Virus record (IMG/VR): IMGVR_UViG_3300035086_000100
Coordinates: 35,060 to 99,059 of that record
Length of the DNA stretch: 64,000 nt
Source of the DNA: a virus
Strand: one strand, 5' to 3'
In this document: positions 2,275 to 27,524 of the stretch, piece after piece
How positions within the stretch are numbered: the first letter of the stretch is position 1
How the letters are laid out: each line of letters begins with the position of its first letter
Program-made: the position numbers and the translations under genes
Notes under the pieces: model-generated
The model's input: the letters and a program-made list of their open reading frames with translations, nothing else
The model's database searches: none
What the model was told of the DNA's origin: nothing

Positions 2275-2283
2275 GGGAGCCTC

Positions 2284-2490
2284 CTACGCGGCGCGGGTCC
2301 GGCGCATCCGGGCGGCGACCTTCGCTATCTCGTTGTAGTCATAGGCCGGCCACCTGCCGAGCTGCCCGAGCGGCTCGATGCCGTTGCGGTCGATCCAGGT
2401 CCGCACCGTCGACGGGGGCACGCCCAGGATCCGGGCGGCGCGGGTGGGCGTGACCAGGTCATCGGGGTGCAGGGTGGCGCGGGGGGGCAT
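2284..2490 (-). CDS. MerR/excisionase-like HTH protein
   Basis: LVTPTRAARILGVPPSTVRTWIDR. Confidence 0.75.
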   Translation of the reverse strand: MPPRATLHPDDLVTPTRAARILGVPPSTVRTWIDRNGIEPLGQLGRWPAYDYNEIAKVAARMRRTRAA

Positions 2491-2610
2491 AGGCACCCCC
2501 AACGCCGCGAAGGCCCGCAGGCAAGCGCGGCGGCGGCATGCATGCGGGCACAACTGTGTTACGGGCGCTAGCGTCTCACTCTCTGTAGCGCAAGTCAACA
2601 CGGTCCGTGA

Positions 2611-3468
2611 TCAGGCGGCTTGGCGCTGCCTTCGGTGCTCGGCCTCCAGTGCCGCCATCTGAGCCTGGTACACACGCGCCATCAGGAGGGTGAACTGCTG
2701 GCCGGCGTAAGCCTGCGGGCACGCCGTGCACCTCACTATTTCCTCCCATCCGCCCTCCCGTGCCTCGTACTGCACCAGCGTCAGCGCATCGCAGCCGTAC
2801 CCGTCGCACGCCACTTCGGTGATGCGGCGGCGCTGCCGGTTCAGGCCCAGCATGCCCCGTGCTCTCCCGGCGATGGCCAGGAACTCAAGCCCCGCGTCGG
2901 TGCCGCCCATCTCGCGGAACTCCCACGCGTCCCCCGCCGAGTCGAAGAACAGCACCAGGCCCGGGTTCGTCTCCGCCAGTTCGGCCAGCCGCGACGGGGA
3001 GGCGTAGCGGGATTTCGGTTCCGGTTCCAGGGACAGCAGCGTGTCCAGGTGCCCGTCCGGCCCCAGGGTCCGGCACGCGTCCGATAGCGCTTTCCCGTCC
3101 CGGCGCTGGCCGGCAGGGTAGTCCGACAGCCGGGCGACCGCCCTGCTTTGCTCTTCCCACCCGACCGCGACCAGCACCATCTCCCGCATGAACGCCTCCA
3201 CGTCCGCCGCCACGGGGATGGGTGCCTCGCGTGACCCGGATACCCGTTCCCCTGCCTGGCCGGTCCTGGGCAGCATCAGGGCCAGGTTCGCGTACGCTTC
3301 GGGGAGCCAGCCGATCGTGCGGCCGATCCAGTCGCGGCAGGTCAGGCAGAACGCCCGGGGGCAGAGCGCGGCGTTGCCCTGGTAGTCGGCTTCCGCGCAT
3401 CTCCGTCCGTTCGCGCAGGGGGTTCCGGAGTCGTTTTCCCCGTCGATGTCCGGGCCGTACCGTGCCAT
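2611..3468 (-). CDS. Zn-finger protein, probable phage late-gene activator
   Basis: N- and C-terminal Cys clusters, ERVSGSREAPIP motif; size and position before late genes typical of actinophage late regulators. Confidence 0.6.
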   Translation of the reverse strand: MARYGPDIDGENDSGTPCANGRRCAEADYQGNAALCPRAFCLTCRDWIGRTIGWLPEAYANLALMLPRTGQAGERVSGSREAPIPVAADVEAFMREMVLVAVGWEEQSRAVARLSDYPAGQRRDGKALSDACRTLGPDGHLDTLLSLEPEPKSRYASPSRLAELAETNPGLVLFFDSAGDAWEFREMGGTDAGLEFLAIAGRARGMLGLNRQRRRITEVACDGYGCDALTLVQYEAREGGWEEIVRCTACPQAYAGQQFTLLMARVYQAQMAALEAEHRRQRQAA

Positions 3469-3632
3469 GGGCGATCACTCCCGGTGCGCATTGGATGCAC
3501 AGAGAGTAACGCGCCGAGAGGGCGGGGATCAGCGGCGGCGTAGTTCACGTGCAGCAGCAGACCGAGCTTGCAGCGCTGCTCAGGCGTCAGCGGCGGAGCC
3601 TTGTCGACCAGTGCGCGGATGTAGTCGTCCAT
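3342..3632 (-). CDS. Small hypothetical protein
   Basis: YIRALVDKAPPLTPEQR motif common in actinophage small ORFs; 3' part overlaps the next gene, so the end is doubtful. Confidence 0.4.
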   Translation of the reverse strand: MDDYIRALVDKAPPLTPEQRCKLGLLLHVNYAAADPRPLGALLSVHPMRTGSDRPWHGTARTSTGKTTPEPPARTDGDARKPTTRATPRSAPGRSA

Positions 3633-3648
3633 CGGCCAGCGGTGACAG

Positions 3649-4134
3649 TCAGACTTCCATGATCCTCGGCGCGTCCGGCGACTCGTCAGCCAGCATCGAG
3701 GCGAACTGGTCCAGCATCGCGGTCTCGGACGGCTTCAGCTCTCCCCGGCCCACCCGGGCTATCGCGTCCTTCCACCGCTCGGACATGTTCACCGGCTCTA
3801 CCGCCGTCGCCGCCAGCGCGTTCACGATCCGGGGATCGGTACCCTCAGGCACGCGGAACCGGAACGTGCAGTAGGTCGGGTCGAAGTCGTCGTCAGCATC
3901 GCAGATGCAGTCCGGGTGCGCCGCGAGCGCGTCATTGACGGCCTTGTAGTCCGCGCGGTTCGGCCCGCCGGTCCTGGTGTACACCGCGATCACCGGGCCG
4001 TCCTCGCCTCGCTCGGCCCACGCGTCCCGGAACCGGGCTACCTCCGGGTTGCCGAGCAGGCCCAGCAGCAGCGCTCCCCGCTCGGCCTGCTTCCCGTCAC
4101 CCAGCACCACGTCGTAGAGGCCCATGGGCGCCAT
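3649..4134 (-). CDS. Hypothetical phage protein
   Basis: High GC3; RFRD..VYTRTGGPNR..DDDFDPTY. Confidence 0.75.
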   Translation of the reverse strand: MAPMGLYDVVLGDGKQAERGALLLGLLGNPEVARFRDAWAERGEDGPVIAVYTRTGGPNRADYKAVNDALAAHPDCICDADDDFDPTYCTFRFRVPEGTDPRIVNALAATAVEPVNMSERWKDAIARVGRGELKPSETAMLDQFASMLADESPDAPRIMEV

Positions 4135-4315
4135 GATGCCGCAGGCGGGGAGCGGTTTTCAGCCGGCCGGCCTTACGTCCGGCACTCGCACGGAACAGCC
4201 CGGAGTAGCCCCTAGCGGTGCGTGGCGTACCTGACGGCGCACACAAGGAAGCGGCGGGGGGTGCCCATGACCTCGAGGCTCCCACCGCCGCCGGATTCGC
4301 GGAGTACGTCACGCA

Positions 4316-4609
4316 CTATGCGGCCCTTGCCCGCCGTTTCAGTCCCTTACGCTGATTCGGGCTCAACCCCCCGTAGACACCCCAGCGCTCGTCATGCTCC
4401 AGCGCGAACTCAAGGCAGGGTGTTCTCACGGGACAAGCCCGGCATACCTGCTTGGCTGCCCTGGTCCCGCCGCCCTTTTCCGGATAGAAAATTTCGGGAT
4501 CAGTCTCGGCGCACAGCGCGAGGTCTTGCCACGCCGGTCCCTGTGCGTTCACGTCCGGTCCGATGCCGGGATCGCCGGGCATGATCCTGATGATTTCGTC
4601 CATCGTCAT
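4316..4609 (-). CDS. whiB: WhiB family Fe-S transcription factor
   Basis: WQDLALC..DPEIFYP..AKQVCRACPVRTPCLEFAL..GVYGGLS; four conserved Cys. Confidence 0.95.
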   Translation of the reverse strand: MTMDEIIRIMPGDPGIGPDVNAQGPAWQDLALCAETDPEIFYPEKGGGTRAAKQVCRACPVRTPCLEFALEHDERWGVYGGLSPNQRKGLKRRARAA

Positions 4610-4621
4610 TCCTTAACTTGC

Positions 4622-5287
4622 CTAGCGGACCGCGCTGTACCCGAGGAACGCCAGCAGGATCACCAGCGCGGGCGTGACGACCAGCACCTCAGGGCGAGTT
4701 GCCGTAGTGAAAGCAAACGGCTCGGGCAGCAGCCTGAACCGGTACCGGGAGAACGGCAGCAGCAGCGGGCAGCCTGAGTCCGTGCACATGTCCCCGGTGA
4801 TGTGGGTGGCGCATCCCAGCCCCACCGCGAGCGCTACGAGGGACAGGCCGGTACCGGTGGCTGTCATCGCGACCGCCCCGCCGATAGCGAGAGCATCGGA
4901 CCAGTGGCCGCCGAGCCGCAGCGCGATCAGCGCCCCGGCCAGGATGAGCGTCAGCAGCACGCCGAGCCCGATGCGTCCGGCAGTGTCGTGCCGGTACTGC
5001 ACCGCCAGCCACGCCAGGACCGTGAACACCGCGACGCCGATGAGCGTGTGGGTGCCGTGCCGGTGCCCGCCGGAGACCTTGCCTACCAGCCAGGCGAACG
5101 AGTGCGTCGCGAAGCCGAACGAGCGGGCCAGGGTGGAGTTCGGGTGATCGATGTCCGGGAGTACCGCCGCGCCGGCAGTCAGGCCGGCCATGAGCGCGGC
5201 CTGCGGGAGCGGCAGGTGCAGGACGTAGATGCTCGCTGCCGAGCCCGTCACCGCGCCGGAGAGCGCATGGGTATGCCCGAGGCACAT
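4622..5287 (-). CDS. YdjM-like membrane metal-dependent hydrolase
   Basis: THALSG, LPDIDH, HRHGTH, HITGD..T..G motifs; several TM helices. Confidence 0.85.
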   Translation of the reverse strand: MCLGHTHALSGAVTGSAASIYVLHLPLPQAALMAGLTAGAAVLPDIDHPNSTLARSFGFATHSFAWLVGKVSGGHRHGTHTLIGVAVFTVLAWLAVQYRHDTAGRIGLGVLLTLILAGALIALRLGGHWSDALAIGGAVAMTATGTGLSLVALAVGLGCATHITGDMCTDSGCPLLLPFSRYRFRLLPEPFAFTTATRPEVLVVTPALVILLAFLGYSAVR

Positions 5288-5289
5288 GG

Positions 5290-5580
5290 CTAGCCGGCCG
5301 CGATAACGATTATGTCGGTCGGGTGGGCTGGCCAGCAGCCATCAGGGTCATCGTCGGCCACGATGTACACGGTCCGCTCGCCGTTCTCGCCGTGCTCCTG
5401 GTAGTCCGCTTCCGTGATCACCGGCCAGCGGCCTGACCTGTCGGGCATGACTCCCATCCGGTGGCCGCCGACCAGGATCATCCCGGGCTTGGCCTCCCCT
5501 GCCGTGATCCGCTTCACCGGGAAACCGGGCTTCCCTGTCATTCCGGCCGCCGTCCGCAGCCTGTTCGCGAGCCTGCTCAT
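5290..5580 (-). CDS. Hypothetical protein
   Basis: ATG 5580 with RBS GGGAGA; in operon. Confidence 0.55.
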   Translation of the reverse strand: MSRLANRLRTAAGMTGKPGFPVKRITAGEAKPGMILVGGHRMGVMPDRSGRWPVITEADYQEHGENGERTVYIVADDDPDGCWPAHPTDIIVIAAG

Positions 5581-5593
5581 CGGTTTCTCCCCT

Positions 5594-7819
5594 TCAGTTC
5601 TCTGCGTTGACGAGCGACCGGTACCGGCCACCGCCGAGGTCTTCGGCCACGCCGACCGCTACCAGGTTGCGGAGCGCCTGATCAGCGGAGAACGCGTCCG
5701 TGTCGGCCATCTGCGACACGTCATACAGATCCATCACGCCCCTGCTGGCCAGCCATGCGGCCAGCAGAGGGACGGTGACGGGCTTCGACTCCGGCGGCTG
5801 CGGCAGGTCACCCGAGTCGTGTCGACGGGGCGCGGGCGCATCCTGGGCGGGCGGCGACCAGCGCGGCCCGGCACCCGGTCCGCTGACGACACGGCGAAGC
5901 TCGGCGGTCACCGCGAACGGCAACTGGGAGTCCTTGACGCCATCCGGCAGCGCGGCTATCGCCTCGATCAACTGCGAGCCGTCCAGCACCGACAGCCGGC
6001 CGCCCCACCCGAGCGGCCTGATGACCGCCTCGATCTCGGGGCCGAGTTCCACCACGTCGAGGGAGATCTTCTCGGCCAGTTCCCGCACGTCCGGGCCGTC
6101 CTCGCCCGGCTTGACGTACTCGGGCAGGTGCTTGGTCCGCATCGTCGTAGACGGCCGGTTGTCCGTGCCGTGCAGAAAGCCAAGCCCGTGCACGCCGGGG
6201 GCCAGCGCCGACGTGTCGCCCTGCACGCCCAGCATGTGCTTGCTTAGCCCGTCCGTGCGGTGAGACAGGACATTGAACGCCTTCAGCAATTCGCGGATCG
6301 CCCGCAGGCCCAGTTCGGTGAGGTCCGGCATCTGGACGACCACCTTGACTTTCACGCCGACCTTGCGGCCCTCCATGATGATCGCGGCGACCAGCGGAAT
6401 CGCGATCTTCGACAGCACCGGGTCGCGGACGATCTTCGGCCACTCGTCGATCGTCACGTCGATGATCGGGTTCTCCGGGGTCGGGTCGAACGAGCCCTTG
6501 CCGGTGTTGACCCTGCCCAGGTGGTCGGTCCAGGTCTGGTCGCCGAACCGGGCGGCGCGGTCGCACATGAGAGCGTGCGCCATGATGATCATCTGCACGC
6601 ACGCCTCAAGGCCCCATGCCATCTGGTCGGCGAAGCCCTTCCAGACCGCGAGGGGCTGGCGCTGCGGGTCACCCATCCACAGGGCAATGATCCGCTTGCC
6701 GTCGACCTTCGCCTGGCCTTCCTCGCAGGCGATGACCAGCAGGGAGCCCGTCTTGCCGGATCCCTGCTGGCCGGCCAGGATCCCGGCGGCGACTCCCGAC
6801 CCGGGTATGTGCAGCAGCCAGTGAGCGTCCTCGCCGTCCGCGTACCGCCCGATCCTGACCTTCCCTGTCGCCGGGTCATACGTCGACTTGCCGTCCCACT
6901 TGTCAGCCCGGTTCCACGCGTTCTTGCGGGTCAGAACCGTCACGATCGCCCGCCGCTCCGACCGGTCCGCCGTGTACTCCACGGTGACCTGGTCCCTGCT
7001 CACGTCGAACTGGGCGGCGACCTTCGGGATCAGCGCGAACAAGTCGCCTGTCGTGGTTTCCGACCCGGCGGGCAGCTCGATTTCCAGCGCGAACCCGTCT
7101 TTCACGTCCCGCAGAGAATGGAACCGGGCGCCCTTGCACGGGCCTGACTGCCCGAACCTGGCACTGAACGCCGTCAGCCTCGGGTCAGGAGGAGGGGGAG
7201 CAGCCGGCGCGGGCGCGGGCGGCTCAGGCGGGGGCTCGGGCCGCTTGCGCGCCCGGTACAGGCCGGGAGCGGCGACGGCCAGGCCGCCGCCGAGCATCAC
7301 GAGCTGGCCCCAGCCGTTCAGGACACCCGCAGCGGTCCCTGCCGCCATGGCGGTGCAGCACGCCGCGCACGACGCCCAGGCGGCCTGCCTGCGCGCCCGT
7401 GCCCGGCCCAGCCTGCGCGCCGACGCGCCGTCAGCGGCGAGCCGGGCGGAGATCCTCGCGTGTCGCACCGCCACCCTGACCGCAGCGACCGTGCACGGGG
7501 CAGCGACCAGGGCGTAACCCCACGGCCAGCCGATCGCGTGGCCGCCGGCAACGAGGCCGTCCGCGCCGGCTACCGCGGACAGCGAGGCCAGCGCCCGGTG
7601 CTGGCGCAGGTAGGCGGCCGGGGCGCTGCCCGGCGGGGTGAACTCGGGCGGGTCCGGGTCCGGGCACGGCTTCGACACGGCGCTCTTGCCGCCGGCGGGC
7701 TTCTTCGCGGTCGGTGCCATGGTTCCGGGTCTCCTGCCGTCCTCTTGCGGTTCGGGCCTGATGGCTTCCGCGTCCCCCGCCCGGCTTCGATCCTGCCGGG
7801 CGGGGGACGCGCACGTCAC
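5594..7819 (-). CDS. traB: TraB-type FtsK/SpoIIIE conjugative DNA translocase (alternative start 7720)
   Basis: N-terminal TM helices, Walker A GQQGSGKT, Walker B VTIDE, EGRKVG arginine-finger motif, C-terminal winged helix. Confidence 0.85.
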   Translation of the reverse strand: MTCASPARQDRSRAGDAEAIRPEPQEDGRRPGTMAPTAKKPAGGKSAVSKPCPDPDPPEFTPPGSAPAAYLRQHRALASLSAVAGADGLVAGGHAIGWPWGYALVAAPCTVAAVRVAVRHARISARLAADGASARRLGRARARRQAAWASCAACCTAMAAGTAAGVLNGWGQLVMLGGGLAVAAPGLYRARKRPEPPPEPPAPAPAAPPPPDPRLTAFSARFGQSGPCKGARFHSLRDVKDGFALEIELPAGSETTTGDLFALIPKVAAQFDVSRDQVTVEYTADRSERRAIVTVLTRKNAWNRADKWDGKSTYDPATGKVRIGRYADGEDAHWLLHIPGSGVAAGILAGQQGSGKTGSLLVIACEEGQAKVDGKRIIALWMGDPQRQPLAVWKGFADQMAWGLEACVQMIIMAHALMCDRAARFGDQTWTDHLGRVNTGKGSFDPTPENPIIDVTIDEWPKIVRDPVLSKIAIPLVAAIIMEGRKVGVKVKVVVQMPDLTELGLRAIRELLKAFNVLSHRTDGLSKHMLGVQGDTSALAPGVHGLGFLHGTDNRPSTTMRTKHLPEYVKPGEDGPDVRELAEKISLDVVELGPEIEAVIRPLGWGGRLSVLDGSQLIEAIAALPDGVKDSQLPFAVTAELRRVVSGPGAGPRWSPPAQDAPAPRRHDSGDLPQPPESKPVTVPLLAAWLASRGVMDLYDVSQMADTDAFSADQALRNLVAVGVAEDLGGGRYRSLVNAEN

Positions 7820-8139
7820 CGGCCAGTGCGGGCCTCGTCGGCGTACTGCTTGTGCGGGGTGTTCTCCGGCCCTCCGGCCGCGGCGACAGCCTCGCCGACC
7901 GGGACCTGGGTGTCGTTGACGGTGTCGGTCATCCGGATCCCGGACGCGACAAGGTCGGTGATCTCGGCCTGGAACACGCGGATCGCGGCGGCCTGCGACA
8001 GGTCGCCGTTGTCGGCCTCCACCTGGGCGGCCATCGTGTCGAGCAGGTCACGCAACTGCTGAAGCCGGGTAATGCAGGCGCCGGCCCAGGCAAGCCAGGC
8101 GGCATGAGTGTTCGTCTCGCCGATCAGCGGGGCAGTCAT
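7816..8139 (-). CDS. 107-aa helical hairpin protein (TraA-like)
   Basis: RBS GAGGGAG; colinear paralogue of the C-terminus of the upstream gene. Confidence 0.75.
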   Translation of the reverse strand: MTAPLIGETNTHAAWLAWAGACITRLQQLRDLLDTMAAQVEADNGDLSQAAAIRVFQAEITDLVASGIRMTDTVNDTQVPVGEAVAAAGGPENTPHKQYADEARTGR

Positions 8140-8164
8140 TGGTTCTCCCTCAGGTAGTGGTCGT

Positions 8165-9595
8165 CTACATCTCGGCGTAGTAATCCGGGTCGGCCACCTC
8201 GTCGGAGCCGCCGGCGCCCTGGACCGCGTCCACGTACGGGTCCTGGTGCTGGTTGACTTCCTCGACCAGGTTCCGGCCGTGGGACATCACGGCGGTGACC
8301 TGGTCAAGCCAGGCGGTCACCGCCGCCATGTGCTCCCGGCCGGCGCTCTTCGCGCTCAGGCACTTCAGCGTGTTCTCCGCCGACTGGGCGATGCCTTCGA
8401 GCGCGGCGTCGATCGCGCTGGTCAGCCCTTCCCAGTCGGCCTGGGTGTGCAGTTCACCGTCAGGCGCGCACGTCATCGGGTCTCCTTGCGGTTGCGGCGG
8501 TGCAGCCTGACCGGGCTGCGTCGGCCCTGCCGGGGCATCCGGCGGGGAATTCTGGGCGGCAGCCTCCTGCGCGATCCGGCCGGCTTCGGCGGCCAGGAAC
8601 TCGGCGTCGCCAGCGGTCAGCGGCATCTCGTTGCCGTCCGCGTCCACGGGGGTTCCCGCGGCGGCCAGTTCGGCTGGCTGGCGTTCCCTGACTGCCCCGT
8701 CCGGGTAGCGGGCCGGGATGCGGGTGATGACGCCGTCCTTGCTGCTCGTGCCGCCGTACCCGCAGTACAGGCAGATGTCGGCGTTGGTGGCATTCACCAC
8801 GTACCAGGTGCTTCTGGGCATGAGCTGGCGGTTGCAGCCCGGCTCGGAGCAGATCCTGACCGGCAGTTTCCATCGGGCCGGGTCTGCGCCCTCGCGGCTG
8901 ACTGGCAGGCCCTGGTAGTCCGGGCACAGCAGGCAGCCCGGATTCACGCACGCGAAGCCGGCCAGCGGCTTGCCGCAGCGGACGCAGCGCGGCGCCGGGA
9001 CTGCCCCGGGTTCCGGGTCGCCCACGATCTCCGCGTCGGGAATCTCGTCGTCGGGGGGCAAGTCGCCGTCCCGCATGGCGGGCGGGGCTTCCTCCGCATG
9101 CTCTGCGACGGCCGGACGGCTGGCACCCGGACGGCATGAGCCGCACAGCCCGTCTTTCAGGGCCGTGACAGCGGCGATGCCGCCGCACTGGCCGCACACC
9201 CCGATCCGCAGCAGCCGGGGGCGCTCGCCGTCCCGCAGGCGCTTCCTGGCCTCGCCGTAGGCGTACTTCCCGCCCCGCCATGCCGCTCCGGCGATCCGGC
9301 GCACGATCCCGGCGCCGTTGCGGAACAGCCTGCGGCGGCGCATCGCCGCGCGAACGGCCCTGGCGGTCCTCATCGCCGCCCACGCCCAGAACGCCGGGTA
9401 GAAGGCGCCGCGCTTGCGGTCCTCTTCAAGCCGTTTCGCGAGCGCCGCGCCCGCCTTGGTTCCCTTGTCCTTCAGGGCCTGGAGTACCGCCGCGCGGACC
9501 GTGCGGCCCTCGGCCACGGCCTGCCAGATCCCGGCCTTGCCGGCGGCGTGCACGACCAGCCACGCCACCAGCATCGGCATGAGGACGACCATCAT
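8165..9595 (-). CDS. TraA-like protein: N-terminal TM/basic region, three Cys clusters, C-terminal helical hairpin (possible internal start 8476)
   Basis: RBS AAGGGAG; CxxC pairs; internal AAGGAGA-5nt-ATG. Confidence 0.7.
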   Translation of the reverse strand: MMVVLMPMLVAWLVVHAAGKAGIWQAVAEGRTVRAAVLQALKDKGTKAGAALAKRLEEDRKRGAFYPAFWAWAAMRTARAVRAAMRRRRLFRNGAGIVRRIAGAAWRGGKYAYGEARKRLRDGERPRLLRIGVCGQCGGIAAVTALKDGLCGSCRPGASRPAVAEHAEEAPPAMRDGDLPPDDEIPDAEIVGDPEPGAVPAPRCVRCGKPLAGFACVNPGCLLCPDYQGLPVSREGADPARWKLPVRICSEPGCNRQLMPRSTWYVVNATNADICLYCGYGGTSSKDGVITRIPARYPDGAVRERQPAELAAAGTPVDADGNEMPLTAGDAEFLAAEAGRIAQEAAAQNSPPDAPAGPTQPGQAAPPQPQGDPMTCAPDGELHTQADWEGLTSAIDAALEGIAQSAENTLKCLSAKSAGREHMAAVTAWLDQVTAVMSHGRNLVEEVNQHQDPYVDAVQGAGGSDEVADPDYYAEM

Positions 9596-9608
9596 CTGAA
9601 AGGCTCCC

Positions 9609-10046: not shown

Positions 10047-10073
10047 TGCGATGGTTCCTTTCGGGGGGGATCG

Positions 10074-10643
10074 TTACCTGAGGTGGAAGGCCAGCCAGGC
10101 AATGCCGATGAAGGCCGCCGCCCCGCCGAGCCGGATCGGGCGGGCGAACAGCCACGCCAGCAGGTAGCCGGCGGTCACGCCGAGCCGTCCGACCGTCAGG
10201 TGGTAGCAGTTGCCGGCCGGGCCGGAGTACTTGCCGTGATGGGTGCACGCCCGGGCTGCGTTTCGGCACGGCTCGCAGCACGGCACCCAGGCCCGGGATT
10301 TGCGGTAGGCGTCATGGACGGCCAGTGACTCGGGCGAGGCGTGCCACGGGCCGCGCGGGTTGGTGACGGTCTTCCGCGCCGTCTGCCAGCACATGGCCGC
10401 CAGGTGCAGGGCGACCGTGCCGCCGCCGATCTTCAGGACCACGCCGTCAGGCACGTCAGCGTCAGGCAGCGCCAGTGCGGCGCCAGGGTCACCGTCAGGC
10501 GCACCGTCAGGCGGAGTGTCATGCCAGCCGTCAGGCGGAGCGTCATGCCGGCGGTGGTGCCCTGGCCCGCCGCAGGACCCGTCAGCCTCGCCCGGGTCAC
10601 GAAGGTCGAACTCGAAGTCAAGGTCGGGCAGCGAACTGGTCAT
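10074..10643 (-). CDS. Spd-like membrane protein with low-complexity PPDG N-terminus
   Basis: C-terminal TM; ATGA coupling. Confidence 0.65.
   Translation of the reverse strand: MTSSLPDLDFEFDLRDPGEADGSCGGPGHHRRHDAPPDGWHDTPPDGAPDGDPGAALALPDADVPDGVVLKIGGGTVALHLAAMCWQTARKTVTNPRGPWHASPESLAVHDAYRKSRAWVPCCEPCRNAARACTHHGKYSGPAGNCYHLTVGRLGVTAGYLLAWLFARPIRLGGAAAFIGIAWLAFHLR
10445..10587 (+). repeat. Array A of CGTCAG(GCG) motif, candidate clt/TraB recognition repeats
   Basis: 7 CGTCAG cores (10445, 10454, 10460, 10493, 10505, 10529, 10580) plus GTCATGCC variants. Confidence 0.75.
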
Positions 10644-10852
10644 GACACCCTCGCGAGTTTCTCGGCAAGCTGGGCTAGCTGGTCGGTGAGCTGGCGGACA
10701 AGGCCCGGTCCCCGGCGGGGGATCTTCATCGCGTCGGCGGCCACGGCGCGAGCCAGCGCGGTCGCCTCCGCCAGCGCCTTCATCTCCTCGCCGGCGGACT
10801 GCGCGGCGGTCATGCGCTCCCTGTACCGGGCGCGCGCGGCAGCGGTAGTCAC
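10640..10852 (-). CDS. Small helical protein
   Basis: GTG 10852; coupled to the downstream gene by ATGA. Confidence 0.55.
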   Translation of the reverse strand: MTTAAARARYRERMTAAQSAGEEMKALAEATALARAVAADAMKIPRRGPGLVRQLTDQLAQLAEKLARVS

Positions 10853-10946
10853 CGGGTACCGCCTCGCGCGCGCGGGCACGCGCAGGTGCATGCCTGCATG
10901 TGCATCCCCGCGTTGGGGGTTCCGGCAGGGCTCAGTTCCGGGCTGG

Positions 10947-11840
10947 TCACCTGTCCGCTCCTTCCGTCTCGCGTGCCGTCTCATCCAGTTCGGGCAGCCA
11001 CTTGGACCGCATCTGCCGGCCCAGGCTGCTGGACGCCGAGAGCCCGGCCGCGCGGACCAGGTCGGCACCGGACGGCGCGGGCCTGCCCGCCTGGATCTCG
11101 GTGTCCCAGTAGGTGCGCATCACCTGGGCGGCGCCGTTGTTGCTCCCGGGCGGACCCGGGGGGATGCACTGCCCGGCGGTGATCGCCAGCTCCCGCGCGT
11201 GGCCGCCGGCGACCGGCAGGCGGCTGACGGGGCTGACGGACTGGCTGGCGGCCCTGACGATTTCCGCCTGACGCTCCGCGATGGCGGCGCGACGCCCGGC
11301 CGCCTGACGCTGACGCTCTTCTTCCGCCTGACGGTCTTCTTCCGCCTGACGGTCGGCGGCCTGACGCTGACGCTCAAGCTCCGCCTGACGCTCGGCCTCC
11401 GCCGCTATCGCCTGACGCTCGGCCAGGCCCTTGCGGGCCGCCTCGGCTGCCCGCCGCTCCATGAGGGAGATCGCCAGCATGAGGAACAAGCCGGGGATCG
11501 CGGCCGTGATGTACCCCCACGCCGACGACTGCGCCCCGGCGAGGTTCCCGGCCAGGGTCAGGCCGATCCCGAAGATCATCACGATGGTGGGCCACGACAT
11601 CCAGCCGCGGCGCTTGCGCCCGGTCCTGATGTCGCGCTGCCGCTCGCGGGCAGCCATCAGCACCCCGAGGTCCACGCACACGGCGATCAGCGGCGCCAGG
11701 ACGCCGGGCTGGCCGTGGCCCGATGCCAGCCGCGTCCAGTGGTCGAACGAGCCGCCGAACGCGATCAGCGCGAGGGCGAGCGGGATGCCGTTGTCGGCGA
11801 CCGCCCGCCCGAAGCCGTTCCCGTCCCCGGCGGCGCTCAC
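10947..11840 (-). CDS. DUF2637/SpdA-like membrane protein with coiled coil and C-terminal HTH
   Basis: 4 TM (AFGGSFDH..PLIAVCVDLG..LTLAGNL..AAIP), RQA repeats, PSGADLVRAAGLS HTH. Confidence 0.8.
   Translation of the reverse strand: MSAAGDGNGFGRAVADNGIPLALALIAFGGSFDHWTRLASGHGQPGVLAPLIAVCVDLGVLMAARERQRDIRTGRKRRGWMSWPTIVMIFGIGLTLAGNLAGAQSSAWGYITAAIPGLFLMLAISLMERRAAEAARKGLAERQAIAAEAERQAELERQRQAADRQAEEDRQAEEERQRQAAGRRAAIAERQAEIVRAASQSVSPVSRLPVAGGHARELAITAGQCIPPGPPGSNNGAAQVMRTYWDTEIQAGRPAPSGADLVRAAGLSASSSLGRQMRSKWLPELDETARETEGADR
11224..11417 (-). repeat. Array B of CGTCAG(GCG) motif, inverted relative to array A
   Basis: 12 CTGACG cores on + strand; full CGCCTGACG at 11265, 11301, 11325, 11343, 11382, 11409. 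Confidence 0.8.
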
Positions 11841-12640
11841 GACGGCACCGCCCCGGGTGACCGGTCGCCTATGCGCCAGTTCTCGTCCCATGCCTTATCC
11901 ATCGCGGACGGGTCGTACGTCGTCCCGGCCGCGATCGAGTGCATCGCCGCAGAGGGCGCACGGCGCTGGTAGTACTCGTCGTCAAAGTCGTGGAAGTGCG
12001 ACCCGTGAATGATCCGGCCGTCGTCGGCGACGCCCAGCAGGTCATATTCGGCCTGCGGACCGCCGCACGCATCGCAGGCGGGCTCAAGTTCGGCGAGGCT
12101 GTCAGCCTCGGCAACTGCGGCAGCGAGCGCAGCCCGGCACTGGCGGCACAACGTCCCGGCACTGGCGGGCTCGCCGCACCAGCAGCAGTAGCGCCAGCGG
12201 TTCCGGATACGGGCGATGACGCTGAAGTCGCTGCGCCAGCGGCACTTCGGGCAGGCCAGCAGATCCAGGGGGTCAGGGTCGCCCGGCTCGGCGATCAGCG
12301 AGGCGCCGCACAGCGCGCGGGGGACCTTGATCCGCAGCCGGTCGAGCAGGCCCTGCCAGAAGCCGGCGACGTGGAGGAACGCGCTGTCCGGCGACTGCGC
12401 GAGCGGCTCGGTGGCTTCTACCTGCCAGCCCTGGTCGCAGATCCAGAAACGTGCATCATCCGGATCCGGGTAGGCATCGCCGAGCGGGGACAGTGTGGCC
12501 ATGCGCCAGGACGCCTGCACCCCGGACGGGGGCACGTGACGGGGGTCGGCGGCGATGATCCGCATCGTGCCGTCGCCCAGGATGCCCCAGATCACCGCGC
12601 CGGGCTCCATGTCCCGGGTGAGCATGTAGTAGCTGGTCAT
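11837..12640 (-). CDS. Hypothetical Cys-rich protein
   Basis: ATGA-coupled start with GGGAGG RBS; several CxxC. Confidence 0.6.
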   Translation of the reverse strand: MTSYYMLTRDMEPGAVIWGILGDGTMRIIAADPRHVPPSGVQASWRMATLSPLGDAYPDPDDARFWICDQGWQVEATEPLAQSPDSAFLHVAGFWQGLLDRLRIKVPRALCGASLIAEPGDPDPLDLLACPKCRWRSDFSVIARIRNRWRYCCWCGEPASAGTLCRQCRAALAAAVAEADSLAELEPACDACGGPQAEYDLLGVADDGRIIHGSHFHDFDDEYYQRRAPSAAMHSIAAGTTYDPSAMDKAWDENWRIGDRSPGAVPS

Positions 12641-12798
12641 GACGCCTCCCGGTTTTCGTCGCGCTTGGCGACCGCAGTGCCGGAGCAGGCGGGGCAGGCG
12701 GACAGGGTCAGTCCCCGCACGCCGGTCCACTCGCAGTCACCGCAGTTCCAGCGGGCAAGCGGCCTGCGCTTGGCGTTGCCGTAGGTCCGGGCGATCAT
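12637..12798 (-). CDS. Small Zn-ribbon protein
   Basis: CGDC..CPAC; ATGA coupling on both sides. Confidence 0.55.
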   Translation of the reverse strand: MIARTYGNAKRRPLARWNCGDCEWTGVRGLTLSACPACSGTAVAKRDENREAS

Positions 12799-12998
12799 GA
12801 CGCCTCCCGGCTGTCGCGCTGAGCGAGATGCGCGTCCCATGCGCGGTCCGTCTCGCGCATCCACTCAGCGGCCGAACCGTTCCTCGCGTGCCAGCCCTCC
12901 CAGTACTGGGAGCCGCCGTCCGCGTGGTCGGCGTGGCGCTGCTCCTCGTCGGCCAGGGCCTGCTCTATCTCGGCCTCGGTCGGCTCACGGGCGCTCAT
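12795..12998 (-). CDS. Hypothetical protein
   Basis: Coupled ORF in operon. Confidence 0.55.
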   Translation of the reverse strand: MSAREPTEAEIEQALADEEQRHADHADGGSQYWEGWHARNGSAAEWMRETDRAWDAHLAQRDSREAS

Positions 12999-13180
12999 CG
13001 GGAGCCTCCGTGGTCAGGGCAGTTGCCGTGCCAGTCGCACGACTCGTGGTCGGTCTTGACCTCGCCGAACGAGCCGGTCGTGCCTGCCCCTCCGTCGCGT
13101 GAGCCAAGCCGGTGGTTACCCTCCGACCAGCGCTCGCCTTCGCTGCTTTCCAGCCAGGCGATGACCTCGGGGTCGTTCAT
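12995..13180 (-). CDS. Hypothetical protein
   Basis: Coupled ORF in operon. Confidence 0.5.
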   Translation of the reverse strand: MNDPEVIAWLESSEGERWSEGNHRLGSRDGGAGTTGSFGEVKTDHESCDWHGNCPDHGGSR

Positions 13181-13401
13181 GACGCCACCCGCCCGTCATA
13201 GGCGGTCTCGCAGGCGGCTGCGTAAGCGGCGGCTGCGGCGCCGATGCCGTTCGGGCACTGGTCGTCGGTCGTGACGACCCTGACTTCGCCTAGGTAGCGC
13301 TCCACCAGTGCGAAGCGTGCGGCAGGCCGGTCAAGGCGCATCGCCTCGGTAGCCGGCTCGACCGTCAGGACCGGGACGGCGGGGAAGGCCCGGATGTTCA
13401 C
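13177..13401 (-). CDS. Hypothetical protein
   Basis: GTGA overlap at 13398-13401; 3' part of track ORF 13177..13896. Confidence 0.45.
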   Translation of the reverse strand: MNIRAFPAVPVLTVEPATEAMRLDRPAARFALVERYLGEVRVVTTDDQCPNGIGAAAAAYAAACETAYDGRVAS

Positions 13402-13583
13402 CGGACTAGCGACAGGATGCACTGCGAGCCGCTGGCGACCCGGTCCCGGTCCGCCAGCATCCTGCGTCCCATGATCCGGATGTCCCGCCGGAACGCCGCG
13501 ATCATCGCGTCCTGCTCGGAGATCACGGCCAGCAGTTGCGTCCTTGTCATCTTGGTGACGGGGACGGGGGGTACTATCTCCAC
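13398..13583 (-). CDS. Hypothetical protein
   Basis: RBS AAGGA; amphipathic helix. Confidence 0.5.
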   Translation of the reverse strand: MEIVPPVPVTKMTRTQLLAVISEQDAMIAAFRRDIRIMGRRMLADRDRVASGSQCILSLVR

Positions 13584-13805
13584 TTGAGTCAGTCCTTACT
13601 AGGGGATGCGGACTCGGATCAGCAGGGTCACCGTTTGCGGCGGTGGCCCTGCTTGCGTTCAGGGGGAAGTTCGCGGTCCCGCAGGAGTGGCCGTCAGCGG
13701 ACCAGTAGACGGTCCCGCAGTTGCCGCAGACCGAAGTCATGCTCAAGCCGGCCGACCGGGGGGCGCAGGAGCGGCAGAGCGGCGGGATGGCTATCGGGGA
13801 GAAGT

Positions 13806-14036
13806 TCATGACTGGCCGCCCTGAGGCCATGCCGTCATGGAAGTGACGAAAGCGCCCGGCACCCGCCACTGAACGCCGACCCGCTTGGCGGGCCACGCGT
13901 CCTTGTCGGCTAGGTGCAGGCGCTTGTAAGTGGCGACGGAGATCTTGAGCCGGTCACAGGCGATCTTGATCGGCAGCAACTCGCCATCGGTGCCCGTCAA
14001 CTTCCGGACATCCGCAGAGGTGCCGTTGGTGCTCAA
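13806..14036 (-). CDS. Excisionase-like HTH protein, first gene of the leftward operon
   Basis: LLPIKIACDRLKISVATYKR..PAKRVGVQWRVP; TTG start with GGGAG RBS. Confidence 0.7.
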   Translation of the reverse strand: MSTNGTSADVRKLTGTDGELLPIKIACDRLKISVATYKRLHLADKDAWPAKRVGVQWRVPGAFVTSMTAWPQGGQS

Positions 14037-14073
14037 CGCTGCTCCCTGTTGGCTGCAAGTACCATTCGGTTTC

Positions 14074-14114
14074 CTACCTAGGCCAATAGTAGGTAGTGCT
14101 AGCCAAGTCGTCAA
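14074..14114 (-). promoter_or_regulatory. Promoter of the leftward tra/late operon with dyad operator
   Basis: TTGACG (14114-14109), 17 bp, TACTAT (14091-14086); CTACCTA-N9-TAGGTAG inverted repeat 14074-14096. Confidence 0.75.
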
Positions 14115-14199
14115 GGCTTGTTCATCAGTGAAAACCGGTGAACTCGGGCGTAGCGGGTGGGGTTATGCCGCAGGAACGGAATCGGCCTAGGCAGATACC

Positions 14200-15096
14200 A
14201 TGATTCGCATGCAACCGATAGACCCCGACGACAAGCGGCATCCGCACGTCCAGATCGCGGCCTCGATCCGCGCGGCGATCCTCACGGGAGAACTTGAGCC
14301 AGGCTCGCAACTTGACACCGGACAGGAACTGGCGGCCTTCTTCGGCGTGTCCCGCATGACCGTGGCTTCGGCGATCCGCACGCTCCGCGACGAGGGCTTC
14401 GTCCGCTCCCGCATGGGCAGCGGCGTGTTCGTCCGCGACCTGGCCAGCCTCCCCGCACCCGAAGGCGAGGAGCATCCGCTGGCCGGGACCGCGATGTTCC
14501 TGTTCGAGATAGGCCAGCTCAAGCACCAGCCCCGGTCGGGCTGGCTGCTGCTGGGCATCCCGCACCCGGAGAGCGTCGCCGAGCACTCATTCCGGGTCGG
14601 CGTCATCGGCCTGATCCTCGCGGCGATGGACGGTGCCGACGTCGGGCGCACTGCCGCCCTGGGCCTGATGCACGACGCGCACGAAACCCGGATCGGCGAC
14701 GTTCCCTCAGTCGGCCGCGCCTACGTCACCACGGCGGACCCCGAAGCCATCACGGCCCACCAGGTCGCGAAGATGCCCGACGAGGCATCGAAGGCCGTGC
14801 AGGAACTCACCGCCGAGTACGAGGCGAACGTGACCCGCGAGGCGCGGCTGGCCCACGACGCGGACAAGATCGAGACGCTGCTGCAGGCCACCGAGTACCA
14901 GGCGCAGGGACATGACACCGAGACGTGGCGGGAGAACTCGGTAGCGGCACTGCGCACCGAACCAGGCCAGCGGCTGGCCCAGGCCATAGGCGCAGGCGAC
15001 TCGCGGTGGTGGGCGCCATTCAATGCGTCCTACCTCGAATTGCATGCCAGTGCGCGCAACCGCACTCAGGCAAGCCGGCCCGACGAGGAGGGATGA
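14200..15096 (+). CDS. GntR winged-HTH + HD-domain (YfbR/HDDC2-like 5'-nucleotidase) fusion; probable start 14209
   Basis: QIAASIRAAILTGEL..GVSRMTV..GSGVFV; RSGW..ESVAEHSF..MHDAHETRIGD..DADKIE. Confidence 0.9.
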   Translation: MIRMQPIDPDDKRHPHVQIAASIRAAILTGELEPGSQLDTGQELAAFFGVSRMTVASAIRTLRDEGFVRSRMGSGVFVRDLASLPAPEGEEHPLAGTAMFLFEIGQLKHQPRSGWLLLGIPHPESVAEHSFRVGVIGLILAAMDGADVGRTAALGLMHDAHETRIGDVPSVGRAYVTTADPEAITAHQVAKMPDEASKAVQELTAEYEANVTREARLAHDADKIETLLQATEYQAQGHDTETWRENSVAALRTEPGQRLAQAIGAGDSRWWAPFNASYLELHASARNRTQASRPDEEG

Positions 15097-15866
15097 TGCG
15101 CGCCGCGATGGCCACCGAGCCCGGCGACGCGGACGTCCCCAACGAGGACTGGTTCGGCATTGCCCCGGAAGCCGTCGTCGTGCTCGACGGCGTGACGGTA
15201 CGGGCAGGCATCGAGTCAGGCTGCGGCCACGGAACGCCCTGGTACGTCCGGCGGCTCGGCGGCATGCTCATGGACGGCATCATCGCGGGCGGGCTTCCGC
15301 TCGCCGATGCGCTCGCGGGCGGCATCAGCGCCGTAGCCGCGCAGCATGCCGGGACCTGTGACCTGGGGACAGTCGGCGCACCTTCAGCCGCCGTGGGCAT
15401 TGTGAGGCTCACGGGCGGCCGGGCCGACTGGCTGGTCCTTGCCGATATCAGCGTCGTTCTCGGCGAGCCCGGCGGGGTACGGGTGATCTCCGACAAGCGG
15501 GTAGACGACTCGGTGGCGGGGATCAGCGTCACCGGCCCGGCTGTTGGCCAGCGGATCGGCGAGGCCCGCACCGCGCACCGCAACCGGCCCGGCGGCTACT
15601 GGGTGGCCGCAGCCGATCCCGAGGCGGCGGCGCACGCGGTAACCGGGTCGGCGCCGCTGGGGGACCTGCACCGGCTCGCGGTGATGACGGACGGCGCCTC
15701 GCGGCTGGCCGACATGTTCGGGATGCCGTGGCCTGACGTGCTGGCAATAGACCCCGGCGACCTGATCGCGATGGTCCGCAAGCACGAGGCGGACGACGCC
15801 GGACGGGTGCGCTACCCGCGCTTCAAGGTCAGCGACGACGCGACCGCCGTAGCGGTTTCGCCCTGA
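15093..15866 (+). CDS. PP2C-family phosphatase
   Basis: NED, VLDG, LAD, MTDG, SDDAT motifs; ATGA coupling. Confidence 0.85.
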   Translation: MMRAAMATEPGDADVPNEDWFGIAPEAVVVLDGVTVRAGIESGCGHGTPWYVRRLGGMLMDGIIAGGLPLADALAGGISAVAAQHAGTCDLGTVGAPSAAVGIVRLTGGRADWLVLADISVVLGEPGGVRVISDKRVDDSVAGISVTGPAVGQRIGEARTAHRNRPGGYWVAAADPEAAAHAVTGSAPLGDLHRLAVMTDGASRLADMFGMPWPDVLAIDPGDLIAMVRKHEADDAGRVRYPRFKVSDDATAVAVSP

Positions 15867-15883
15867 GGGAATTGGGAGTCCGG

Positions 15884-16303
15884 ATGCCCAGAGCTGACCG
15901 TCCCGCCCCGCCGTACGTCCAGATCGCCGGCTACTACCGCGACGAGATCGCCAGCGGGCAGCGCCGGGCGGGCGAACGCCTTCCGTCTATCGCCGCGATA
16001 GCCGAAGGCTGGGCAGTGGCGGCGGCCACTGCGGCGAAGGCAATCGGCCTGCTCTGCGACGAGGGGCTGATCTCCACGTCGCCACAGGGAAGCTTCGTCC
16101 TGCCGCACGGCACGGAAGGCAAGATCGACGCCGCGATCACGGCGGCTGACGCGGCGCTGAGCGCTATCCGCCTCCTGGCAGACCCCCGGGAGAAAGCCGA
16201 AGCCGCCGGGCGGCTCGTGAGCGGACTGCGCGCCCGTTCAGATGAGGCCGACCGTATCCGGCATGCCGGCCGCGATGACGAGACCGGTGAAAACCCGGCC
16301 TGA
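15884..16303 (+). CDS. GntR family regulator
   Basis: PPYVQIA..GERLPSI..WAVAAATAAKA..G.FV. Confidence 0.85.
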   Translation: MPRADRPAPPYVQIAGYYRDEIASGQRRAGERLPSIAAIAEGWAVAAATAAKAIGLLCDEGLISTSPQGSFVLPHGTEGKIDAAITAADAALSAIRLLADPREKAEAAGRLVSGLRARSDEADRIRHAGRDDETGENPA

Positions 16304-16469
16304 CCGCTAGGCTGCCCTTCAGAACTGAAAATGCCCCGGCTCTGCCTCTGACAACAGAGCACGGGGCGCGTCAACACCGAACCCCTGAAAGAACACGGTG
16401 CGACATGCACACGGTACATCCCGGCACTGACATTCCGCGCACCCCGCTCGCGACAAGCCGCGCCGGCCG

Positions 16470-17168
16470 GTGATCGAGTCCTGGCTGAAAGCCATCCGCG
16501 ACCATCCTGACCGGCCGCCAGCCACAGAGCAGGTCGTGCTCGAACGCCTCGCGCTGCGGCTGGACTGGGTGACCGGCAAAGGGTTCTGCAGCGTCCAGCA
16601 GCTCATGGAGGACACCCCGGCGGGCAAGCGGACGGTACTCCGTGCCCTCGCGTGGGCGCAGTCCGAGCCCGTGGCGATCCTCGAACAGACCCGCCGCGGC
16701 GGGCGGCGGGGCGCCGGCTACACGCTGGCGTCGGAGTGGGCGCTGGCCGTGCCCGAAAGCCAAGGTGCCGCTGACGGCACCTTGAGGCTCGTTCCCAAGG
16801 TGCCAGATGAGGCACCCCAAGGTGCCAGCTCAGCACCACCATCAAGACCTGTACTACATCAAGACCTAAAAGAAGGTGATGACTCACTGGTCCCGCGACG
16901 CGCCCGACCTTCGGTCAGGCGAATTGACGCGATCAGATTCGTTCGCCTCGCTGCTGCCGAGGTTTACGGCCAGGACGAAGCCGACTACCTCACGGACAGC
17001 CAGTGCGCCGCGCTCTGGTACCACCTGATCGGCCGCAAGCGGCCGGGCAACCCGGTGAAGTACCTCAGCAAGCCGTTCCGCGACGCGCCGTACCTCGACA
17101 CCCACGTGGCCAACGCCGGCGACGAAGAAGACTGGGAGGCCGAGATGACAGGAGTGCTGGCCGCATGA
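16470..17168 (+). CDS. Winged-HTH replication initiator-like protein
   Basis: GFCSVQQLMEDTPAGKRTVLRAL wHTH, linker with iterons, C-terminal NPVKYL. Confidence 0.6.
   Translation: MIESWLKAIRDHPDRPPATEQVVLERLALRLDWVTGKGFCSVQQLMEDTPAGKRTVLRALAWAQSEPVAILEQTRRGGRRGAGYTLASEWALAVPESQGAADGTLRLVPKVPDEAPQGASSAPPSRPVLHQDLKEGDDSLVPRRARPSVRRIDAIRFVRLAAAEVYGQDEADYLTDSQCAALWYHLIGRKRPGNPVKYLSKPFRDAPYLDTHVANAGDEEDWEAEMTGVLAA
16761..16876 (+). repeat. Palindromic iterons + A-rich tract (candidate origin)
   Basis: CAAGGTGCC at 16761, 16796, 16818, each with a GCACC partner; perfect dyad 16761-16784; ATCAAGACCT at 16841 and 16858. Confidence 0.7.
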
Positions 17169-17479
17169 CGCCCGCCCATGAAGGTCCCCGGCTTGCGCGG
17201 CTGTGCGCGGTCAGGGACAACCGCACATTGTCAACGTCCGCCAAGCTCGCCTACGCCACGCTGGCGCTTTACGAGCCCGGCGAGCATCCGAGCGTCACGG
17301 ACATTGCCGCAGCCATGAGCGTGAGCCGCACCACGGCGCTGAAGGCACTCCGCGATCTGGAGGCAGCCCGCGCCATCAGGGTGACAGGGAGGCGCAAGGG
17401 GCGCGGCAGCCGTGAGGTGAACACCTACGAGCTTCTGTCGCTCGCTCATCTGGCGTCGGCGTCAGGCGAGGATTCGTGA
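17165..17479 (+). CDS. Winged-HTH protein (HTH_36-like)
   Basis: LSTSAKLAY..PSVTDIAAAMSVSRTTALKALRDLE..NTY. Confidence 0.8.
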   Translation: MTPAHEGPRLARLCAVRDNRTLSTSAKLAYATLALYEPGEHPSVTDIAAAMSVSRTTALKALRDLEAARAIRVTGRRKGRGSREVNTYELLSLAHLASASGEDS

Positions 17480-17553
17480 GTCCCGCATGTCCGCTCGGCG
17501 CGTTTTATCCCGGCACCGTGCCCGCTGGGACGCTGCGGGTTACCCTTGCTCCC

Positions 17554-17895: not shown

Positions 17896-17933
17896 GGTAG
17901 AGCGCCGATGACGGTTTGATTCTGTCATTCCCT

Positions 17934-17973
17934 CAGCCCCGGTCCCCGGACGAGCCGGGAGTAGCCGGGGCTG
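17934..17973. terminator. GC-rich hairpin
   Basis: CAGCCCCGG..CCGGGGCTG after the operon end. Confidence 0.45.
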
Positions 17974-27523: not shown

Positions 27524-27524
27524 C

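Follow-up and report, generated by a model that had tools for sequence, protein, structure and literature searches.

A plasmid-type TraB-like transfer cassette in the genome of a temperate tailed actinophage

A transfer module in an actinophage genome

The IMG/VR virus record IMGVR_UViG_3300035086_000100 (99,059 bp) is that of a genuine temperate tailed actinophage, and it carries a gene module of about 11.5 kb that resembles the gene sets with which actinomycete plasmids pump double-stranded DNA (dsDNA). Coordinates given here are those of the window, a 64,000-nt stretch made up of the last 64 kb of the record (positions 35,060 to 99,059). The module (4316–15866) consists of a leftward operon, which includes the gene for a TraB-like ATPase, and a divergent GntR-family gene. 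Because of its resemblance to the plasmid sets, the phage may be able to spread without virus particles. The most likely function of the module is predicted to be TraB-driven, virion-independent movement of the dsDNA phage genome between hyphae or hyphal compartments, a reading to which we give a probability of roughly 60%. The host is probably a filamentous, high-GC actinomycete of the Streptosporangiales.

With this record, the few actinomycete phages that have plasmid-type dsDNA transfer genes gain an uncultured, integrating soil member of about 100 kb. Should the module transfer DNA, virions would not be the only factor behind phage spread, lysogen dynamics and gene flow among mycelial soil bacteria.

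The TraB-like ATPase

The pump gene of the module is the following.

5594–7819, minus strand: TraB-like dsDNA translocase of 741 aa (the database form has 708 aa and starts at 7720)

The protein has a Walker A motif (GSGKT) and an invariant Walker B DE, and it retains all 68 of the 68 columns that are invariant across 24 homologues. An AlphaFold (AF2) model built from 24 homologues (pLDDT 75.5) gave FtsK motor structures as its top Foldseek matches (E 1e-12, TM 0.60–0.65 on target), followed by TcpA, which is a conjugative coupling protein, and EccC. The model has long N-terminal helices with hydrophobic segments, and its residues 650–702 follow the topology H-E-H-H-E-E; as modelled, the phage protein has an N-terminal membrane anchor and a C-terminal winged helix. 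Some of the longer TraB homologues carry an added FtsK_gamma domain.

At the sequence level, the sole NCBIfam match was plasmid_TraB (NF041214, E 9e-12), and no Pfam, PHROG or PDB sequence match was found. Its identity with 'transfer proteins' encoded by Streptomyces and Kitasatospora plasmids is about 29%, and hhalign comparison of its family gave an E value of 5e-4 with pIJ101 Tra and a probability of 96.7% with pSLE1 Tra. Homology, fold and profile evidence combined justify the label 'TraB-like', which holds as a statement of homology and modelled fold, not of curated equivalog membership. A first-pass annotation of the same DNA had called the protein a TraB-type FtsK ATPase of the actinomycete plasmid and AICE (actinomycete integrative and conjugative element) kind, in agreement with the fold, the plasmid_TraB match and the homologues.

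A protein search with TraB returned 32 homologues of 39–58% identity. Phylogeny had been suggested as a check on the ancestry of the protein, and in a maximum-likelihood tree the phage TraB nests in a clade of 19 sequences from integrative and plasmid elements, with 99% support, on a branch two to five times longer than those around it. A tblastn search of TraB against 50,697 phage records returned nothing, even at E≤1. Viral contigs scanned with one protein at a time, either TraB or the ParB-methyltransferase (ParB-MTase) described below, gave nothing either. Megablast of window 1–25000 against phages gave one unrelated PAPS-reductase match and nothing else.

Organisation of the operon and its regulators

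Genes in the window, which has a G+C content of about 69%, were called by third-position GC. The remaining features of the module are listed in the order of leftward transcription, followed by the divergent genes.

14086–14114, minus strand: sigma70-like promoter candidate, TTGACG-17-TACTAT, 9/12 positions, heading the leftward operon
13806–14036, minus strand: first small gene of the operon, about 76 aa, no family match
11837–13809, minus strand: four genes (about 210, 61, 67 and 297 aa) with no assigned function, not common to relatives
10947–11891, minus strand: DUF2637 membrane protein (E 7.6e-7), Spd-like candidate with 3–4 transmembrane segments and a C-terminal charged coiled coil
10074–10643, minus strand: conserved module protein, 189 aa, with a C-terminal transmembrane segment; hosts the second repeat array
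9609–10046, minus strand: conserved membrane protein with three transmembrane segments
8165–9646, minus strand: conserved Cys-rich protein, 493 aa, with an N-terminal transmembrane segment
7816–8139, minus strand: conserved 107-aa protein directly upstream of TraB, 54–66% identical in five relatives
5290–5631, minus strand: 113-aa protein, no family matches
4622–5287, minus strand: YdjM-family membrane protein, also in the module of L002, L003 and L030
4316–4609, minus strand: WhiB-family regulator, present in five related elements at varying positions
14200–15096, plus strand: GntR winged helix (1.3e-17) fused to HD_3 (YfbR-like; 2.2e-31)
14925–15866, plus strand: PP2C-like protein, start uncertain, weak PP2C_2 match

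All reading frames of the module are intact and tightly packed, and membrane segments are predicted in six of the operon proteins. The minus-strand run extends from about 14036 to 1571, its genes mostly overlapping or a few bases apart. The leftward promoter had been noted from the letters alone and stands up well at 9/12 positions, and just one other such site exists within 17.5 kb. The inverted repeat CTACCTA ... TAGGTAG (7 bp, 14074–14097) overlaps the -10 element of the leftward promoter and may be an operator.

The family assignments made in the first pass for DUF2637, YdjM, WhiB and ParB-MTase were all supported by family matches. The first operon gene had been described as a helix-turn-helix (HTH) gene, for which no HTH family match was obtained; its product may be DNA-binding, and it is 35% identical over 57 aa to the product of the first gene of a Spirillospora element (L031). 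The four genes at 11837–13809 gave neither a family nor a tblastn match. The C-terminal ~100 aa of the 8165–9646 product and the 7816–8139 product are paralogues, both matching a single place in L018.

The GntR-HD protein is 65% identical to the product of the divergent gene of a related element (L004), and the PP2C-like protein is 37% identical over 283 aa to the PP2C protein encoded divergently from the TraB module in PhiNon1. HD_3, a YfbR-like 5′-deoxynucleotidase domain, is found with the TraB module in three clades, as a fusion to GntR in the phage (14200–15096) and in L004 (1107–2087), and as a stand-alone domain in G001/G151 (G001 13459–14100, 46% identical).

Two inverted repeat arrays form a clt candidate

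The 8-mer GCCTGACG occurs 20 times in the 64-kb window, where about 6.4 copies are expected, and 12 of the 20 lie in two 150-nt clusters of opposite orientation.

11266–11417, plus strand: array of seven exact GCCTGACG (CGTCAGGC on the coding strand), inside the DUF2637 gene
10445–10536, minus strand: array of five exact GCCTGACG on the coding strand, inside 10074–10643, with eight TGACG cores

The arrays are mutually inverted and about 830 bp apart. On the coding strand the first reads CGT-CAG-GCG (Arg-Gln-Ala) and the second CCT-GAC-G (Pro-Asp-Gly), and both use rare codons: of the codons of the phage genome, CGT accounts for 5.7% of those for Arg and CCT for 8.7% of those for Pro, and third-position T is 7.5% overall.

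Paired inverted arrays are also found in L003, L004, L005, L010 and L030, i.e., in six elements including the phage. The relatives have 5–10 CGTCA per 150 nt in the DUF2637 gene, then 6–9 TGACG per 150 nt in the next conserved gene; the background for the core is about 0.3 per 150 nt. At the homologous places of the six elements the TGACG core is enriched 25–30 times. In the second array the repeats mostly recur every 12 nt or a multiple of it, and the T is always at codon position 3 (the core in codon phase 2), while the amino acid of that codon differs between elements (Pro, Thr, Gly, Ile, Val or Ala). Since the T keeps its codon position while the encoded amino acid differs, the constraint is on the DNA.

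In Streptomyces, a clt locus is made up of clustered direct repeats of 8 bp to which the cognate TraB binds (PMC4447253). The two arrays are a likely candidate for the clt of the phage, one that is concrete and testable. A bolder and rather unlikely proposal, modelled on FtsK-orienting polar sequences (KOPS), is that the arrays would act as polar loaders for the TraB winged helix and give one fixed pumping start for the whole 100-kb genome; it also holds that the placement of the cassette just before the pre-terminase regulators arose independently in the phage, L002 and pSLE1/pZL12, and would couple the choice of whether replicated DNA is packaged in virions or pumped from hypha to hypha.

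More distant TraB elements have other clustered 8-mers, at L018 5240–5372 and L001 5081–5272 (GTCCCGGA six times, GTCTCGGA five times), in the 3′ part of a large upstream gene; because of these, each clade may have its own recognition repeat.

Phage context and the order TraB to terminase

The first 35 kb of the record form a minus-strand virion arm with genes for the large terminase (944 aa), portal, minor head protein and tape measure (1267 aa). The plus-strand arm, from 14200 to about 51 kb, carries early genes including a serine recombinase, a Gp3-like recombination directionality factor (RDF), an HNH endonuclease and a C5 methyltransferase. It is on the virion arm, the serine recombinase, the RDF and the early genes that the identification as a temperate tailed phage is based, and the first-pass placement of the module inside a bona fide phage is in line with the terminase, portal, minor head and tape measure genes. 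The features outside the module that bear on the argument are these.

2–907, continuing left of the window, minus strand: ParB-MTase fusion, 470 aa, first gene of the terminase-bound arm
977–1574, plus strand: rightward cassette of two genes inside the leftward run, with a promoter-like site at 977–1005
2284–2601, minus strand: HTH_17/HTH_23 protein, conserved partner of phrog_1568
2611–3468, minus strand: Cys-rich DNA-binding protein, sole match phrog_1568 'DNA binding protein'
20018–21499, plus strand: large serine recombinase (phage integrase), 6 kb right of the module
within 27144–28628: Gp3-like RDF
51425–52417, minus strand: tyrosine recombinase

The phrog_1568 and HTH genes are a conserved pre-terminase pair, found in many viral contigs of a wider phage clade. 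The first-pass names 'TraA-like pair' and 'late activator' are putative labels; gene 2611–3468 matches phrog_1568 and nothing that would make it an activator of late genes. The transfer cassette heads the same arm as these regulators, and a rightward cassette with a separate promoter region precedes the ParB-MTase and terminase genes. The promoter-like site at 977–1005 (10/12) is the best in the region; the two genes behind it (1046–1351, a 101-aa acidic protein; 1344–1574, a 76-aa MerR/Xis-like HTH protein with weak matches) have good coding statistics and separate gene 1571–2119 from ParB-MTase. The first-pass annotation had run a single same-strand series through to ParB-MTase and put transfer and virion genes under a shared switch. 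The series holds from 14036 to 1571, with the two plus-strand genes intervening before ParB-MTase; the module does share an arm with the pre-terminase regulators, while the rightward cassette and its own promoter stand between it and the virion genes. The shared switch is thereby supported in part. No terminator-like fold better than shuffled sequence was found in the intergenic gaps 3469–3648 and 4135–4315. The region 908–1045, between ParB-MTase and the rightward cassette, is divergent and richer in A+T and has an inverted repeat (AAACGTTG ... CAACGTTT); it is likely to be a control region of the virion arm.

The record is a metagenome assembly from a single run, and a chimeric misassembly of a phage with a plasmid or AICE could in principle produce such a join. 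A Logan assembly of the sole run holding the sequence, made independently, gave one contig of 101,606 bp, identical over window 1–20000. As that run is probably the source run, the contig is a second assembly and not a second sample, and it speaks to contiguity, not to independent occurrence or local coverage. Phage genes flank the module on both sides, and L002, a 19.7-kb IMG/VR contig from another sample, links TraB (36% identity) to a terminase on the same strand and in the same order: after TraB come YdjM (51%), phrog_1568 (33%), a MerR-like HTH gene and the large terminase (phrog_979, E 2e-38). A misassembly is therefore very improbable. A coverage break had been named as a sign of misassembly, and synteny in viral contigs as a check; the second assembly reproduces the join, and L002 supplies the synteny.

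The L002 TraB belongs to a different clade from that of the phage, so the link between such modules and phages has more than one origin or goes far back. The pump lies upstream of the terminase on the same strand at about 7.4 kb in the phage (with other genes and the rightward cassette between), 7.3 kb in L002 and 1.1 kb in pSLE1. Given that the three pumps are only 26–36% identical to one another, the recurrence hints at selection for this arrangement.

Relatives and origin of the cassette

Related loci (L001–L020, L030 and L031) were collected by scans of viral, metagenome and genome collections. In the closest relatives TraB is 48–58% identical and the gene order is that of the phage: the DUF2637 gene (36–54% identical, in the same position), the counterparts of 10074–10643, 9609–10046, 8165–9646 and 7816–8139, then TraB, often followed by YdjM (L003, L004, L005, L010, L011 and L030). 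A divergent GntR gene is also present in L003 and L018 (GntR+UTRA) and in L004 (GntR-HD). A pooled Pfam scan of 44 flanking open reading frames from six relatives gave Phage_integrase (two), GntR+UTRA (two), Prim-Pol, ParA, ParB and an IS4 transposase; terminase, portal, capsid and tail families were absent from these 44 frames, and none of the remaining genes of the phage recurred in the flanks. On a Spirillospora chromosome, a tyrosine integrase and a tRNA-like gene come after the module, and other relatives adjoin chromosomal genes (a true ftsK, an aminotransferase). The TraB family was found in 4 of 151 sampled genomes of the order, a tally that includes one unpublished genome (G006), on which no other claim draws.

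The source of the cassette is thus visible: its nearest relatives lie in integrase-bearing, non-phage elements, twice at about 10 kb from a related prophage. On the chromosomes of G001/G151 and of Spirillospora G004, an AICE-like element with this TraB sits about 10 kb from a prophage that has several early genes and phrog_1568 in common with the phage, a possible route of capture.

The phage module has the TraB-type transfer gene and GntR regulator of an AICE, and lacks an integrase with att sites and a replication initiator of its own. Pfam scans of the genes in 2284–17479 gave no recombinase; no Rep family (RepSA, RepAM, prim-pol) was found among the module genes by Pfam, PHROGs and NCBIfam, although four of these genes have no family, so that a novel Rep is possible; and no att-like direct repeats or tRNA flank the module. 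With integrase, Rep and att repeats all absent from the phage copy, the module is best described as a captured transfer cassette and not an inserted AICE: it is AICE- or plasmid-derived without being an AICE. The first-pass statement that no separate integrase, att repeat or Rep marks an insertion holds for the module, including the bounding repeats that would have spoken for one; recombinases do exist elsewhere in the genome (20018–21499 and 51425–52417).

The second of these bears on whether an autonomous AICE has integrated into the phage as a passenger. The relatives of the module are AICE-like, and the tyrosine recombinase is 27–30% identical to integrases beside TraB in L004 and L031 (and 36% to one on pSLE1). 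This gene is, however, 37 kb away, between early and lysis genes; Rep/prim-pol, att-like repeats and a flanking tRNA are missing, as above; and the left edge of the module merges into the conserved phage genes phrog_1568 and HTH, leaving a passenger AICE distinctly improbable. The phage has its own integration system in the serine integrase and Gp3-like RDF. What had been taken for a resolvase fitting a plasmid-like state is this large serine integrase. As for autonomous maintenance (RepA/ori, ParA/ParB), the ParB-MTase fusion alone was seen in a scan that took in about half of the early genes, and the serine integrase and RDF point to integration.

An alternative that starts from the same neighbourhood is that the cassette is a decaying, non-functional remnant of a past recombination between a prophage and an AICE. 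The AICE-like elements beside related prophages offer an obvious route, the phage copy has neither int nor rep, and its TraB has a long branch in the tree. Decay is nevertheless hard to square with reading frames that are intact and tightly packed, the retention of every family-invariant TraB residue, rare-codon arrays that are exact, and a TraB module at the same place in two other phage-type elements; we regard it as improbable.

Whether the IMG/VR 'provirus' G001 is a third module-bearing phage was considered. Its module and its prophage are separated by genes for a tyrosine integrase, a TROVE protein and a methyltransferase, so that G001 more likely represents two neighbouring elements. 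No empty-site relative of the phage was found; L047 and L049, which have phrog_1568 and HTH without the module upstream, are only about 35% identical and uninformative on insertion.

Comparison with known systems

Phages with plasmid-type transfer are already known, and the present phage is a new member of that group, not a new class. The first-pass annotation had seen the hybrid as an unusual kind, a view that does not survive comparison with pSLE1, where the layout is the same, with pZL12/phiZL12, or with PhiNon1, which has a similar module. The Streptomyces plasmid-phage pZL12/phiZL12 was reportedly described by Zhong et al. in 2010 (J Bacteriol 192:3747). It is a conjugative plasmid-phage whose transfer is reported to require the major tra gene and two neighbours (PMC3583192), and pSLE1 of S. 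leeuwenhoekii (NZ_LN831788) is a syntenic relative of it (PMC4487206). Both are tailed-phage genomes of about 86–90 kb with a Tra/TraB-type pump locus, and as in the pZL12 type, the present phage combines a set of virion genes and a Tra locus in a single replicon. In pSLE1 a divergent GntR gene and same-strand small genes are followed by a 774-aa 'conjugative DNA transfer' Tra, a motor homologous to the phage TraB, and then by terminase, portal and capsid. Kinship with pSLE1 is nevertheless not close: about 8 of 143 phage proteins have a tblastn match in it, at 25–50% identity, and the genes in common are those for a C5 methyltransferase, a tyrosine recombinase, an exonuclease, WhiB and part of TerL. 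Whereas pZL12 and pSLE1 persist as plasmids with ParA/ParB, the phage has a large serine integrase and a Gp3-like RDF; its regulator also differs in being a GntR-HD protein, and no TGACG arrays were seen in pSLE1.

PhiNon1 of Nonomuraea gerenzanensis (NZ_LT559120) is a phage-plasmid element seen both as a circle and integrated (PMC5431353). It too comes from the Streptosporangiales and has a full virion gene set, a DUF2637 gene, small genes, a 654-aa TraB-like gene (27% identical over 482 aa to the phage TraB) and the divergent PP2C gene mentioned above. It is smaller (59 kb), and its module converges on lysis and tail genes instead of heading the terminase-bound arm; the PhiNon1 paper does not discuss the TraB module (PMC5431353).

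The transfer systems of pSVH1, pIJ101 and pSAM2 resemble that of the phage: the pump is FtsK-like, is anchored in the membrane and has a C-terminal winged helix; the membrane proteins come from an operon with translational coupling; the GntR-family regulator is divergent; and 8-bp repeats occur in clusters (PMC4447253). The phage differs from them in its TraB, which is far under the family cut-offs, and in its regulator, which has HD_3 and not UTRA. Its repeats lie inside coding sequence, as two inverted arrays, and its membrane proteins have no detectable similarity to SpdB of pIJ101. The phage module has no Rep or Int of its own, its carrier being the phage. Thoma et al. (PMC4447253) have put forward the SpdB2 homologues encoded by actinophages as possible aids to the spread of phage DNA.

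Proposed mechanism and its main rival

The mechanism sketched here builds on the observed gene content and synteny, on homology and fold, on the phage setting and on the arrays, which are constrained at the DNA level; the binding of TraB to the arrays, regulation by GntR-HD and transfer itself are what we infer. From an actinomycete integrative or plasmid element, a temperate phage would have captured the genes for DNA transfer but not those for integrase and replication. On relief of repression by GntR-HD the leftward operon would be expressed, and hexameric, FtsK-fold TraB would assemble in the membrane and load on the 8-mer arrays, acting as clt. It would then pump the phage genome, as circular dsDNA, across the cross-walls at septa or into an adjoining hypha, assisted by the membrane proteins, so that the phage could spread virion-free, as shown for the plasmid-phage pZL12.

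Several points weigh against this reading. TraB scores 44.2 bits with NF041214, for which the curated cut-off is 800, and so falls outside the membership of that family; it gave no PF01580 (FtsK_SpoIIIE) match even at E≤1, where pIJ101 Tra scores 38.8 bits. Its terminal branch is long (0.75 versus 0.1–0.35 in its neighbours), which could reflect a changed or relaxed function. The divergent GntR gene noted in the first pass is indeed present at 14200–15096; its product carries HD_3, not the UTRA of KorA/TraR-type regulators. The DUF2637 protein, the Spd-like candidate, has no similarity to pIJ101 SpdB, and the arrays could serve another DNA-binding protein, as iterons, centromere or operator. 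The mycelial habit of the host is predicted from its relatives.

In the main rival, DNA is pumped at septa or into spores: the pump, together with the membrane proteins that accompany it, may have been repurposed, either to move genomes into prespore compartments (carrying the phage in spores), or for superinfection exclusion or septation control. FtsK/SpoIIIE-type pumps, whose fold is the one matched, segregate DNA at septa, the phage carries a WhiB gene, and the module adjoins conserved pre-terminase regulators; the long terminal branch is compatible with a shift of function. Yet the whole cassette, including the divergent regulator and the arrays, retains the layout of non-phage elements, and in pZL12, the sole phage in which a locus of this type has been characterised, it is reported to serve conjugal transfer. 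Repurposing is accordingly judged unlikely, if worth keeping in view beside virion-independent transfer.

Neighbouring genes and other observations

Right of the GntR-HD gene are two more winged-helix genes of the GntR/HTH_36 type, at 15872–16303 and 17003–17479, of which the first is listed here.

15872–16303, plus strand: second short GntR-family HTH protein (GntR 1.5e-8), with paralogous DNA repeats D8 and D9

The GntR-HD gene and 15872–16303 have a repeat in common at the DNA level (14242–14396 versus 15911–16065).

In L031, ARAGORN predicted a tRNA-Asn (15633–15705) directly beside a TROVE (Ro60-like) gene (L031 15631–17436; G001 36156–37892), and this tRNA-Asn/TROVE site lies between the AICE-like element and the prophage. 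The tRNA-Asn of L031 could be a true tRNA att site or a tRNA-like part of a Y RNA. Downstream of a TraB of 34% identity, L019 (14760–20482) encodes two ParB-domain proteins and a DUF5131 (phage Gp37/Gp68-like) protein, a context that could be that of a phage or a plasmid.

The large terminase of the phage (30423–33257 of the full record, G000, left of the window) has weak DnaC-like and primase-like PHROG matches in its first ~130 residues, and on account of these an extra N-terminal domain or an insertion is possible.

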